From: Escherichia phage phiv205-1
Sequence record: MN340231.1
Length of the DNA: 44,616 nt
Reading direction: 5' to 3' (one strand)
The position numbers were made by a program. Numbering within the stretch: position 1 is the first letter of the stretch; each line of letters starts with the position of its first letter. Positions 27,001-30,000 of the stretch are shown one piece after another.

Positions 27001-30000
27001 AATGCTGCGATATAGCTCTCCTTGATTGCCGCAGCAGCTTTCCCGGTGAACCCCATCACAACCATGATCCAGCCATCTTTCGTCAGGCTGTACATCGGGC
27101 GAACCTTGCCCTGCTCATCGATATAATCAGCCGACGCAAAATTGCGTTGGCTAAACTCACGCGAGCAATCAGCCTTAACCTGCTCGATTTTCCTGAGAAC
27201 ATCACCGTGTCGCTTGCCGAAGTACTTGGCAATTTTTCTGGATGTGGTAACGACCTCTCCGTTTTTGGCTTGCACCATTTCTCGGAAGTCGAAGGCTGGA
27301 ATAACTGAATGATTATTCATAGCGTCTTTACCTTTTAGAAAGTGAGCCTGTCTCACAGAAAAGCCGCCCGAGAGAGGTCGCCACCTATAACGGCATTTCT
27401 CAGGCTCGCTTACTGAAAGGCTCTCGTTAATATGCGCGTGAGATGCGCTGTGAAATTCAGATATAAAAAGCCCCGCGAATGCGAGGCTAAATCCTGGTAT
27501 TTGTAATGAACTGGCTCTTATCTCAACGCAGCCCCTTACTGCGCGCAAGATGCTCAATATCAAGCATCAGCAATGAGATGTTTAATCTGGATTCACTCCA
27601 GAAGTGATCATCACCCTGTCTACAGAGCCAGATGTGAAGGATGATGAGTAAAATTATCGCTATCATCGAAGGCATTGCGTCCTGATGTATTCCTGAAGCG
27701 TTCTCAGTGCTGTTTGGTCGCGGATAATTCCGTCCCGGACACCGAGAACGTTTCGTCCAGCAACTGGAGAGAGTTCGACGGTGGCATCATTGCCCATGCC
27801 GGAGGCGCCGGAGGTTTCGGCTGAGGATGGCACAGGGCATTTTCCTTTGACGAGCACCCTGCCACCATTATCAAGCTTGCGCCGAAGAGCATCATTTTCA
27901 GCTTTCGCATCAGCTAACTCCTTCGTGTATTTAGCATCGAGTGCATCAGCAGCACGCTGGCGTCGCTGCATGTCAGTAATGGTGGCGGCCGCCTGCTTCA
28001 GCTCACTGACTTTTTTATCACGCTGTTCTTTGTAGGCGATGGCGTTATCACGGTAATGATTAACAGCCCATGACAGGCAGACGATGATGCAGATAACCAG
28101 AGCAGAGATAATCGCGGTGACTCTGCTCATACCTCAATCTCTCTGACCGTTCCGCCAGCCTCTTTGAATTTTGCAATCAGGCTGTCAGCCTTATGCTCGA
28201 ACTGACCATAACCAGCCCCCGGCAGTGAAGCCCAGATGTTGCTGCAACGGTCGATAGCCTGACGGATATCACCGCGATCAATCATCGGCAAAGCGCCACG
28301 TTCCTTAATCTGCTGCAGCGCAACAGCGTCCTGGCTTTTGGGAGAGAAGTCTTTCAGGCCAAGCTGCTTACGATAGGCATCCCACCAACGGGAAAGAAGC
28401 TGGTAACGTCCGGCTGCTGTTGATTTGAGTTTGGGGTTTAGCGTGACAAGTTTGCGAGGGTGATCGGAGTAATCAGTGAATAGCTCTCCGCCTACAATGA
28501 CGTCATAACCGTGATTTCTGGTTTTCTGCCGTCCGTTATCTGTTCCTTCTGACCACGCCAGCATATCGAGGAACGCCTTACGTTGATTATTGATTTCCAC
28601 CATCTTCTACTCCGGCTTTTTTAGCAGCGAAGCGTTTGATAAGCGAACCAATCGAGTCAGTACCGATGTAGCCGATGAACACGCTCGTTATATAAGCGAG
28701 ATTGCTACTTAGTCCGGCGAAGTCGAGAAGGTCACGAATGAACCAGGCGATAATGGCGCACATCGTTGCGTCGATTACTGTTTTTGTAAACGCACCGCCA
28801 TTATATCTGCCGCGAAGGTACACCATTGCAAACGCAAGGATTGCCCCGATGCCTTGTTCCTTTGCCGCGAGAATGGCGGCTAACAGGTCATGTTTTTCTG
28901 GCATCTTCATGTCTTACCCCCAATAAGGGGATTTGCTCTATTTAATTAGGAATAAGGTCTATTACTGATAGAACAAATCCAGGCTACTGTGTTTAGTAAT
29001 CAGATTTGTTCGTGACCGATATGCACGGGCAAAACGGCAGGAGGTTGTTAGCGCAGCCTCTTGCCACCCGCTTTCACGAAGGTCATGTGTAGAAGGCCGC
29101 AGCGTAACTATCACTGATGAGTTCAGGATAGCCAGTGGCTACGGCTCAGTTATGGTGCTGGTTAACGGACTTGAACCGCTACCCATTCGCTTACAAGGCG
29201 ACCGCTCTACCATTGGAGCTAAACCAGCATATTTGGCGGGACAGCGTGGACTCGAACCACGATAAGAAGGTTAACAGCCTTCCGTAATGACCTTTATACG
29301 ACTGACCCAAATAAAAAATCCCGAAACCGTTGTGCAGGCTCTAACTATTACCTGCGAACTGTTTCGGGATTGCATTTTGCAGACCTCTCAGCCTGCGATG
29401 GTTGGAGTTCCAGACGATACGTCGAAGTGACCAACTAGGCGGAATCGGTAGTAAGCGCCGCCTCTTTTCATCTCACTACCACAACGAGCGAATTAACCCA
29501 TCGTTGGGTCAAATTTACCCAACTTTATTCAAAAAGTCAATATTATGCCGTTAATATGTTGCCATCCGTGGCAATCATGCTGTTAACGTGTGACCGCATT
29601 CAAAATGTTGTCTGCGATTGACTCTTCTTTGTGGCATTGCACCACCAGAGCGTCATACAGCGGCTTAACAGTGCGTGACCAGGTGGGTTGAGTAAGGTTT
29701 GGGATTAGCATCGTTACAGCGCGATATGCGGCGCTTGCTGGCATTCTTGAATAGCCGACACCTTTGCATCTTCCGCACTCTTTCTCAACAACTCTCCCCC
29801 ACTGCTCTGTTTTGGCTATATCAACCGCACGGCCTGTACCGTGGCAATCTCTGCATCTTGCGCCCGGCGTCGCGGCACTACGGCAATAATCCGCATAAGC
29901 GAATGTTGCGAGCACTTGCAGTACCTTTGCCTTAGTATTTCCTTCAAGCTTTGCAACGCCACGGTATTTCCCCGATACCTTGTGTGCAAATTGCATCAGA

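Follow-up and report, generated by a model that had tools for sequence, protein, structure and literature searches.

Why does a temperate phage place two tRNA genes at the head of its late operon, and what does it gain from them? The question is raised by Escherichia phage phiv205-1 (record MN340231.1), whose 44,616 nucleotides were analyzed as one stretch that we call the window. The element it holds is a CUS-3/Kapi1-like P22-type prophage, which adjoins a tRNA-Arg(CCT) gene with the integrase gene beside it. Using ARAGORN and Rfam we found only three tRNA genes in the whole window, namely this tRNA-Arg and, in the late leader, a tRNA-Thr with anticodon UGU and a tRNA-Asn with anticodon GUU. 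From the annotation point of view the latter two are ordinary phage tRNA genes; their interest lies in the conflict between phages.

Two tRNA genes behind the late terminator

ARAGORN called both genes at exactly the coordinates, and with the two anticodons, that a first-pass annotation had proposed, and Rfam agrees with these calls (Table 1; the gathering threshold of RF00005 is 29 bits). On the transcribed strand the order is Asn, 5 nt, Thr. The encoded CCA ends and the U.U mismatch in the acceptor stem of tRNA-Asn, which belonged to the same proposal, are present as well: both genes encode CCA, behind the discriminators G73 (Asn) and A73 (Thr), and the mismatch is U4.U69 in standard numbering. 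tRNA-Asn has a further mismatch in the D stem (U13.U22), so that 19 of its 21 stem pairs are standard; in tRNA-Thr 20 of 21 are standard, with a mismatch at the top of the anticodon stem (G27.A43). The anticodon arms read GAAGG-CUGUUAA-CCUUC in tRNA-Asn and GUCGC-CUUGUAA-GCGAA in tRNA-Thr. Additionally, the nucleotides that are established as identity elements are in place, with G1-C72, C2-G71, G35 and U36 for ThrRS in tRNA-Thr and G34, U35, U36 and G73 for AsnRS in tRNA-Asn. Judged from their sequences, both are genuine, functional-type phage tRNA genes.

Table 1. Features of the late leader and the neighboring lysis genes in the window.
Feature	Position	Strand	Basis or remark
Q, lambda-type late antiterminator, 207 aa	29583..30206	minus	Pfam PF03589 Antiterm, E 1.3e-57
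pR' (presumed), late promoter, TTGACT-17 nt-TAAATT	29512..29540	minus	consensus scan and alignment with the lambda pR' region
tR', intrinsic terminator	29309..29371	minus	hairpin ~29371-29319 (RNA fold) and U-tract UUUUUUAUUU 29318-29309
tRNA cassette, 159 bp	29152..29310	minus	stands in place of 163 bp of unrelated DNA in lambda (44782-44944); junctions computed
tRNA-Asn (GUU), 75 nt	29234..29308	minus	ARAGORN; Rfam RF00005, 55.3 bits, E 2.4e-9
Inter-tRNA spacer AAUAU, 5 nt	29229..29233	minus	read from the sequence
tRNA-Thr (UGU), 76 nt	29153..29228	minus	ARAGORN; Rfam RF00005, 61.2 bits, E 5.7e-11
Leader from cassette to S, conserved, common to lambda	28911..29151	minus	alignment
S, holin/antiholin, 107 aa	28587..28910	minus	Pfam PF05106 Phage_holin_3_1, E 2e-29
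R, endolysin, 158 aa	28127..28603	minus	ORF; same position as the Kapi1 endolysin and CUS-3 R
Rz, spanin, 155 aa	27663..28130	minus	Pfam PF03245 Phage_lysis, E 1.4e-28

The surroundings had been described as a lambda-like Q-pR'-tR'-S region, and this is borne out by Pfam, by the RNA fold and by the alignment with lambda. Q is identical to the Q of Kapi1 at 206 of 207 residues, and in the alignment its 3' end and the DNA downstream share about 97% identity with lambda. The terminator tR' is near-identical to its lambda counterpart as far as position 29311, which corresponds to lambda 44781. G1 of tRNA-Asn (29308) lies directly against the U-tract of tR', and about 240 nt separate the cassette from the holin gene S, which starts at 28910. 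The R reading frame gave no Pfam match at E<=1e-5.

Between Q and S, the only sigma-70-like site found by a consensus scan is the one which, from what is established for lambda, we take to be pR'. A second promoter serving the tRNAs was not found between Q and S in this crude scan, by which tR' was also left undetected. The same crude scan gave no promoter-like site on the plus strand from 28850 to 29650, a search prompted by the antisense signal reported in Kapi1 lysogens. In the BTP1 prophage, whose pair is 98.7% identical to ours, both tRNA genes belong to the features whose TPM exceeds 100, and the transcript of the late operon starts directly after the tRNA genes (PMC7067206). Most likely, the tRNAs of the window would arise at the head of the late transcript that Q antiterminates, and host tRNA-processing enzymes would most likely cut them out of it. 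A slight leak through tR' may also occur in lysogens.

A cassette shared among temperate phages

The lambda DNA at this place is unrelated and tRNA-free; that it is different had also been stated in the first-pass annotation. Its reading of the segment as an insertion holds only in so far as the DNA is different: what we see is not a simple insertion, but a like-for-like swap of 159 bp for 163 bp. The left junction of the replacement is the end of the tR' U-tract. Identity to lambda amounts to 283/290 in the left flank and to 252/262 in the right flank, which was compared from its junction up to and including the start of S, and the alignment has no meaningful similarity across the swapped segment. 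The lambda segment does not qualify as a decayed tRNA pair, ARAGORN having returned nothing and Rfam no tRNA match at E<=1. Part of this lambda filler matches an inter-tRNA spacer of rV5-like phages.

The cassette is already known: many P22-like and lambda-like phages have it annotated, and the Asn/Thr pair has been discussed in the literature (PMC8022706, PMC2629481). The first-pass annotation noted neither this nor the published action of the near-identical phage 21 tRNA-Thr against P2-OLD. We found the 156-bp pair in 411 of 5,426 complete E. coli genomes; it carries PGAP annotation in about 8% of the complete genomes of E. coli, and is annotated also in dozens of phage records. The first-pass annotation was right that other lambdoid phages carry tRNAs in the late operon, with Sf6, phage 21 and the Stx phages as examples. 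Indeed, Sf6, phage 21, BTP1, SfI, Kapi1, mEp506 and HK446 share the 156-bp sequence with 98.1-100% identity (SfI 100%; Kapi1, HK446 and mEp506 99.4%; Sf6, phage 21 and BTP1 98.7%), in the order Asn, 5 nt, Thr and at the same site between tR' and the holin gene. The Q/pR'/tR' module upstream is of the lambda type here and in Kapi1, HK446 and mEp506, but of the 21 type in Sf6, phage 21 and the Stx phages. tRNA-Asn is 100% identical to the copies in Sf6, phage 21, ST64T and JLK-2012. tRNA-Thr matches phage 21 and Sf6 at 75 of 76 positions, the sole difference being the unpaired nucleotide 26, which is G here and in SfI but A in phage 21, Sf6 and the Klebsiella phage Mulock. CUS-3, the closest overall relative, has no tRNAs, and the cassette is therefore dispensable.

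More distant parallels exist. In Stx-converting lambdoid phages, ileZ-argN-argO lies between Q and stx, at the same position past the late terminator and on a Q-dependent transcript. The isoacceptors are different, however: for phage 2851 ARAGORN gives the anticodons CAU, UCG and UCU, and the record annotates Ile, Arg and Arg. P1-like phage-plasmids contain an adjacent Asn/Thr tRNA pair with the same anticodons and order, and the Thr tRNAs are 82% identical to ours, whereas the Asn tRNAs are only 60% identical and the genomic context is another one.

A likely role in counter-defence, and codon supply

What, then, could the benefit be? We consider it likely that functional Asn and Thr tRNA genes are carried here in a mobile 159-bp cassette whose main value is to provide nuclease-resistant stand-ins for host tRNAs. 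Their remodelled anticodon stems, devoid of the features that the nucleases recognize, would keep ACA and AAY codons readable, and extra capacity for ACA would come as a secondary benefit.

For the Thr member the comparison is direct. Govande et al. 2025 (PMC12445682) showed that the tRNA-Thr of phage 21 (tRNA-Thr21) shields cells from P2-OLD and is resistant to cleavage in vitro. The authors ascribe the resistance to an anticodon stem that is shortened and bears C28U/G42A; in their test tRNA-Thr21 was supplied on a plasmid, and the cells were only partly rescued from OLD, forming small colonies (PMC12445682). The tRNA-Thr of the window is 75/76 identical to tRNA-Thr21 with an identical anticodon arm, differing by the one base at unpaired position 26. 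It has the UGU anticodon, G27.A43, U28 and A42, and its motifs at 28-30 and 40-42 are UCG and CGA, compared with CUG and CAG in the host. The window tRNA-Thr carries the P2-OLD resistance features and, by analogy with the one-base variant from which resistance itself is known, would be expected to withstand the nuclease.

P2-OLD senses activities such as interference with RecBCD, and Gam is an OLD activator. The prophage encodes Abc2, an anti-RecBCD protein, and we count this towards the OLD-resistance reading. The timing points the other way: OLD is triggered by an early function whereas the tRNAs belong to the late operon, and they might thus come too late. A search of ten accessory ORFs of the prophage with PADLOC for tRNA-targeting defence gave only a weak NsnC-like match.

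For the Asn member, the host counterpart has a paired CNG motif (CGG/CCG) together with UAAU and is cut by OLD and AriB (for OLD, PMC12445682). In place of these, the window tRNA-Asn has AAG/CUU and UAAC, and from the absence of the OLD and PARIS-AriB motifs we infer that it, too, may have an anti-nuclease role. From position 36 to 41, tRNA-Thr has UAAGCG and tRNA-Asn UAACCU where the host has UAAUCA and UAAUCC, respectively; both tRNAs are altered at or around the AriB cut site (40|41) and may resist the nuclease. We do not count the departures from the host at positions 39 and 41 as statistical support for an anti-PARIS function; such support is weak, since at 62-69% identity to the host tRNAs, or about 65% overall, any one stem position may be expected to differ by chance. 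Loss of the CNG motif is also not universal in the family, because the Asn tRNA of Mulock keeps CNG on both strands. The Thr anticodon stem of the P1-like pair likewise keeps CNG on both strands.

The T5 tRNA-Lys/Thr/Asn set, which neutralizes PARIS (PMC11464382, PMC12409363), has Thr UGU and Asn GUU in common with the window, that is two of the three isoacceptors. The T5 Asn and Thr variants, which aid PARIS rescue, and the window pair are all without U39 of the UAAU element beside the AriB cut site. The sequences are unrelated beyond being tRNAs, however, and the T5 genes sit in a region of 20-plus tRNA genes, unlike the two-gene late-leader cassette of a temperate phage. A tRNA-Lys(UUU), which in T5 is required to bypass the PARIS system that was studied, is absent from the window according to ARAGORN, and hence the pair is not a complete anti-PARIS set.

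One may speculate further, though we would sooner doubt this than assert it, that the Asn tRNA is a second resistant decoy, and that in this cassette temperate lambdoid and P22-like phages carry a module of two tRNAs dedicated to counter-defence. It would be directed against the Toprim anticodon-stem nucleases that P2-like prophages and P4-like satellites encode (Old and AriB variants of the PARIS type), and leaky expression in lysogens, past the terminator of the constitutive promoter pR', would have the resistant tRNAs ready at induction or attack. A cassette that recurs in temperate phages of Escherichia, Shigella and Salmonella encodes versions of two host tRNAs that are destroyed by the Old and PARIS nucleases. 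Should the Asn tRNA and the place in the late leader matter as well, the cassette would be a compact counter-defence unit, swapped by recombination at the tR' junction, and if true this could help to predict which prophages are able to grow in hosts carrying P2 or P4.

It is unlikely, in our judgment, that the tRNAs provide pure codon supplementation, in which they only raise the supply for codons over-used by the late genes and so speed up virion protein synthesis. Such a role has been proposed for AAC in the capsid gene of phage L (PMC8022706), and thrU is the sole UGU tRNA gene of E. coli K-12 (PMC12445682). In the late genes ACA reaches 16.1 per thousand, compared with 5.4 in a sample of 42 K-12 genes (OR 3.0, p 8e-12), and the coat gene is rich in Thr (91 per thousand), with AAC making up 78% of its Asn codons. 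The early genes, however, which are translated before late-operon tRNAs are made, are nearly as enriched in ACA (12.8 per thousand). Asn codons are not significantly enriched (43.2 versus 37.6 per thousand in the host, OR 1.16, p = 0.08). For the codons with the strongest enrichment, AGA and AGG (6.8-fold) and AUA (3-fold), there is no phage tRNA. Codon supply also leaves the conserved remodelling of the anticodon stems and the conserved G27.A43 unexplained, and CUS-3 manages without tRNAs. The first-pass idea that the tRNAs tune late-gene translation is accordingly borne out in the roughly threefold ACA enrichment over the host sample, but not in the early genes or in the Asn codons. As a full explanation, codon supply is rejected for Asn and is partial for Thr. 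Because ACA is enriched, a plain codon-supply benefit of the Thr tRNA is inseparable from a role in counter-defence.

Conservation and origin of the cassette

The copy in Mulock, which is 91% identical, offers a more distant comparison. Between the Asn tRNAs there are seven differences, six of which make three compensatory pairs. The seven between the Thr tRNAs comprise four in two compensatory pairs, one change from G-C to G.U and two in unpaired positions. No pair is broken in either gene, and both U4.U69 and G27.A43 are retained. In simulations, the chance that seven random substitutions break no pair was about 0.018 for Asn and about 0.016 for Thr. Both tRNAs thus appear to be under structural selection.

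This bears on a reading that we regard as very improbable, namely that the cassette is a selectively neutral passenger, a piece of the mosaic genome that is carried along with the Q-tR' or lysis modules and is of no current benefit. Its patchy presence in close relatives would fit, CUS-3 and lambda being without it, and so would the decayed versions: in the Stx2 phage 2851 only a 24-nt stub of tRNA-Asn is left, JLK-2012 has a chimeric Thr, and in ST64T/L the second tRNA is remodelled. Yet compensatory evolution with no broken pairs between the E. coli and Klebsiella phage copies, 98-100% conservation over phages of Escherichia, Shigella and Salmonella with different Q types, and the measured phenotype of the phage 21 copy all speak against mere carriage.

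We likewise give very little credence to an RNA-processing element, by which RNase P and 3'-end processing would cut the late transcript just past tR', freeing the leader and fixing the 5' end, and with it the stability, of the lysis and morphogenesis mRNA, decoding being incidental. The tRNAs are the first element past tR', and the start of the BTP1 late transcript just past its tRNA genes is what such processing would produce. Any tRNA-like structure would do for this purpose, yet conservation extends to the anticodons, the identity elements and the CCA ends; the arrays found at this position differ in the tRNAs they contain, but these are always decodable ones, and neither lambda nor CUS-3 needs the tRNAs to express its late genes.

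Concerning their origin, the two tRNAs are only 62% (asnT) and 69% (thrU) identical to the host isoacceptors, and in 4,381 of 5,426 E. coli genomes the host Asn and Thr genes were unmatched by blastn with the cassette; on these grounds a host origin is rejected. We practically discount the suggestion, made in the first-pass annotation, that the genes are remnants of a former integration target, that is, tRNA fragments which site-specific recombination at an attachment site in a tRNA gene would have captured or copied. Integration into tRNA genes does occur in this group of phages, and the prophage itself adjoins tRNA-Arg(CCT) and an integrase gene, but both genes are complete with their own CCA, evolve by compensatory change and lack identity to a host tRNA gene, and the cassette lies inside the prophage, about 28 kb from the att end, and recurs in phages that use different integration sites.

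Two tRNA genes directly downstream of tR'

According to ARAGORN, the window contains three tRNA genes, and two of them, a tRNA-Asn and a tRNA-Thr, lie side by side between tR' and the leader of S, both scoring above the 29-bit threshold of the Rfam tRNA model. In the direction of transcription, tRNA-Asn comes first and tRNA-Thr follows after a 5-nt spacer; both genes encode their CCA ends, and the U-tract of the terminator directly abuts G1 of tRNA-Asn. The tRNA-Asn contains the mismatches U4.U69 and U13.U22, while tRNA-Thr has one mismatch, G27.A43, at the top of the anticodon stem. 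The first-pass annotation had described this pair accurately: its coordinates are exactly those from ARAGORN, and the U.U mismatch it saw in the Asn acceptor stem is the real U4.U69.

Features of the window and of the compared phages (L numbers are our handles for the phage sequences named with them)
Feature	Position	Strand	Basis or remark
tRNA-Arg(CCT)	1009-1083	+	ARAGORN; adjoins tyrosine integrase
Tyrosine integrase	1245-2402	+	beside tRNA-Arg(CCT)
sar RNA	9971-10037	+	Rfam RF00262, 83.9 bits, full-length match
139-aa ORF	11307-11726	-	PADLOC NsnC (E 6e-6); phrog_8366
Late genes	12754-28910	-	codon comparison
Rha-like regulator or antirepressor gene	26796-27320	-	PHROG 518, E 4e-78
S, R, Rz	3' of leader	-
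Leader, 241 nt, common to lambda	between tRNAs and S	-
tRNA-Thr (UGU)	29153-29228	-	ARAGORN; Rfam tRNA model 61.2 bits
tRNA-Asn (GUU)	29234-29308	-	ARAGORN; Rfam tRNA model 55.3 bits
tR' hairpin and U-tract	~29371-29309	-	RNA fold
pR' (TTGACT-17-TAAATT)	29540-29512	-	promoter scan
Q, lambda-type	29583-30206	-	Pfam Antiterm; 206/207 identical to Kapi1 Q
Erf gene	39968-40573		neighbour of abc2
SSB gene	40573-40956		neighbour of abc2
Abc2, anti-RecBCD protein	40980-41276	+	PHROG 656, E 8e-57
Lambda filler, 163 bp	lambda 44782-44944; L002 591-753
tRNA-array spacer, FV3	L015 1201-1268
Annotated tRNA-Thr, JLK-2012	L008 691-766
Second tRNA, ST64T	L005 791-862		same in phage L
tRNA-Asn stub, phage 2851 (FM180578.1)	L011 1511-1534

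The window is a P22-type prophage, nearest to CUS-3 and Kapi1 (64-66% coverage, 97-98% identity). Its attachment-site end is marked by tRNA-Arg(CCT) and the integrase; the match to CUS-3 starts at about window 1054, and argW is the reported integration site of Kapi1. The sar RNA is an antisense regulator of the P22 antirepressor gene, and we therefore assign a P22-type immI region to the prophage. The Rha-like gene is embedded in the late operon, with Rz on one side and the terminase genes on the other, an unusual spot for a regulator; by position, it corresponds to the most highly expressed lysogen gene of Kapi1. Between Q and S, pR' was the only promoter-like site found in the promoter scan. 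A clear signal antisense to the tRNAs was reported in the Kapi1 lysogen transcriptome (PMC12922286), and no sigma-70-like promoter was found on the plus strand at window 29135-29430. The reported signal may reflect genuine antisense RNA, or abundant tRNA reads that leaked onto the other strand.

The flanks of the pair match lambda at 283/290 and 252/262 positions. Homology runs as far as window 29311 (lambda 44781), where the tR' U-tract ends, and picks up again from window 29151 (lambda 44945). The intervening stretch measures 159 bp in the window and contains the tRNAs; in lambda, 163 bp of unrelated sequence take its place. Thus, the segment does differ in lambda, as the first-pass annotation stated, but the cassette is a replacement and not the simple insertion that had been proposed. 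Neither ARAGORN nor a permissive Rfam search detected a tRNA in the lambda segment, which is itself a mosaic. Over nucleotides 85-153, it shares about 87% identity with a spacer in the tRNA array of rV5-like myophages such as FV3, and this spacer precedes their tRNA-Thr(UGU) by about 120 nt. Even in lambda, this position thus has its ancestry in a tRNA array.

Distribution and variation of the arrays

The cassette is already known and annotated. We find the 156 bp at 98.1-100% identity in SfI, Kapi1, HK446, mEp506, phage 21, Sf6, BTP1, SPN9CC and about 30 other phage records, where the usual annotation is tRNA-Asn plus tRNA-Thr. Additionally, 411 of 5,426 complete E. coli genomes contain a match covering at least 80% of the query, annotated there by PGAP.

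The expectation that other lambdoid phages carry tRNAs in the late operon was borne out, with different arrays after tR' by phage: Asn-Thr in this window, Sf6, phage 21 and Kapi1; Asn-Thr-Gly in JLK-2012; Asn-Phe-Thr-Arg in Klebsiella phage Mulock; Asn plus a remodelled second tRNA in ST64T and L; Ile-Arg-Arg in the Stx2 phage 2851; and no tRNA in lambda and CUS-3. The annotated tRNA-Thr of JLK-2012 is chimeric: over the 5' third it matches the phage tRNA-Thr exactly, while the remainder resembles host thrU, with a host-type anticodon arm (CUG, UAAU), only 3/5 anticodon-stem pairs and no ARAGORN call. The 72-nt second tRNA of ST64T combines Thr-type acceptor, D and T arms with a remodelled, shorter anticodon region (Rfam 42 bits, no ARAGORN call); in the phage L paper it was read as Leu(UAA). 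In phage 2851, the U-tract of a 21-type tR' is directly followed by a 24-nt 5' stub of tRNA-Asn, with matches at 23 of the first 25 nt; after it come unrelated DNA, the three tRNAs with their Ile, Arg and Arg annotations, and stx2A. The stub looks like a scar left by the Asn-Thr cassette that an ancestral Stx late region carried. CUS-3 (CP000711.1), the closest overall relative, lacks the tRNA genes and has a shorter, 519-nt Q gene, which indicates that the Q-tR'-tRNA region is a separately exchanged module in genomes otherwise 97-98% identical.

Probable selection on the tRNAs, and codon supply

Judged by their sequences, the phage tRNAs are not copies of host genes: they share 62% identity with E. 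coli asnT and 69% with thrU, and blastn with the cassette as query left the host asn and thr tRNA genes undetected in most E. coli genomes. The established identity elements for AsnRS and ThrRS are present. The best evidence that the tRNAs are probably under selection comes from the Mulock copies, which are 91% identical, with seven differences per tRNA. Six of the seven in Asn make up three compensatory pairs; Thr has two such pairs, which take up four differences, one change of G-C to G.U and two differences at unpaired positions. All pairs stay intact, and U4.U69 and G27.A43 persist as mismatches; the chance that seven random substitutions spare all pairs is about 1.6-1.8% per tRNA. The BTP1 pair, 98.7% identical to that of the window, belongs to the features of that prophage whose TPM exceeded 100 in cultures of Salmonella; the BTP1 late operon transcript was reported to start directly after the tRNA genes (PMC7067206).

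Do the tRNAs simply supply codons? Codon usage in 19 late and 25 early genes was set against that in 42 annotated genes of K-12. In the host sample, ACA makes up 5.4 codons per thousand; the figure is 12.8 for the early and 16.1 for the late genes (late versus host OR 3.0, p 8e-12). Asn codons reach 43.2 per thousand in late genes versus 37.6 in the host (p 0.08). The most enriched late codons, AGA plus AGG (6.8-fold) and AUA (3-fold versus the K-12 sample), have no phage tRNA. Stx phages carry tRNAs for such codons in the same position. Codon supply can hence reasonably account for Thr in part but explains Asn poorly, and pure codon supplementation is an unlikely reason for the pair. The tuning of late translation suggested in the first-pass annotation is supported in part for Thr and poorly for Asn; overall, its interpretation was partly right. 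Neutral hitch-hiking is very improbable given the compensatory evolution and the phenotype measured for phage 21 tRNA-Thr. Still less credit is due to a role in processing the late mRNA, against which the conserved anticodons and identity elements argue. The former integration target also suggested there can practically be dismissed, as both genes are complete, differ from the host tRNAs (62-69% identity) and lie in the interior of the prophage.

A proposed role in counter-defence

P2-OLD senses RecBCD interference and is activated by RecBCD inhibition, which makes the Abc2 protein of the window relevant as a candidate trigger. The nuclease recognises a paired CNG motif and A37, and cells are rescued, partially, by phage tRNA-Thr(UGU) genes (Govande et al. 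2025, PMC12445682). The phage 21 tRNA-Thr was tested directly; it protects against P2-OLD and resists cleavage, owing, according to the authors, to the combination of a shorter anticodon stem with C28U/G42A (PMC12445682). The most interesting functional reading is already published, for a one-base variant of our Thr member: 75/76 nucleotides are identical, and the sole difference is the unpaired nucleotide 26. The anticodon arms are the same (G27.A43, U28, A42, CNG on neither strand). An anti-nuclease role of tRNA-Thr is thus supported by near-identity to the tested molecule.

For tRNA-Asn such a role may be inferred from its stem, which lacks CNG on both strands (AAG/CUU versus CGG/CCG in the host). 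In the PARIS defence system, a U39-to-A change abolishes cleavage of tRNA-Lys, and the T5 Lys, Thr and Asn variants together neutralise the system (Belukhina et al., 2025). Positions 36-39 read UAAG in Thr and UAAC in Asn of the window, and the rescuing Thr and Asn of T5 likewise lack U39. ARAGORN calls no tRNA-Lys in the window, which leaves the pair short of a complete anti-PARIS set. Several points speak against counter-defence: the tRNAs lie in the late operon while OLD is triggered early, the Asn of Mulock has CNG on both strands, differences at given stem positions are expected by chance at about 65% host identity, and CUS-3 lacks the cassette. Overall, we consider an explanation that combines an anti-nuclease role with codon supply to be probable. 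What would be new is a two-tRNA counter-defence module with the Asn member and the site immediately behind tR' among its parts, a tentative proposal to which we give somewhat less than even weight. Near the immI region, the 139-aa ORF matches NsnC weakly and phrog_8366, a PHROG family of unknown function, strongly; it may be an accessory or defence gene.
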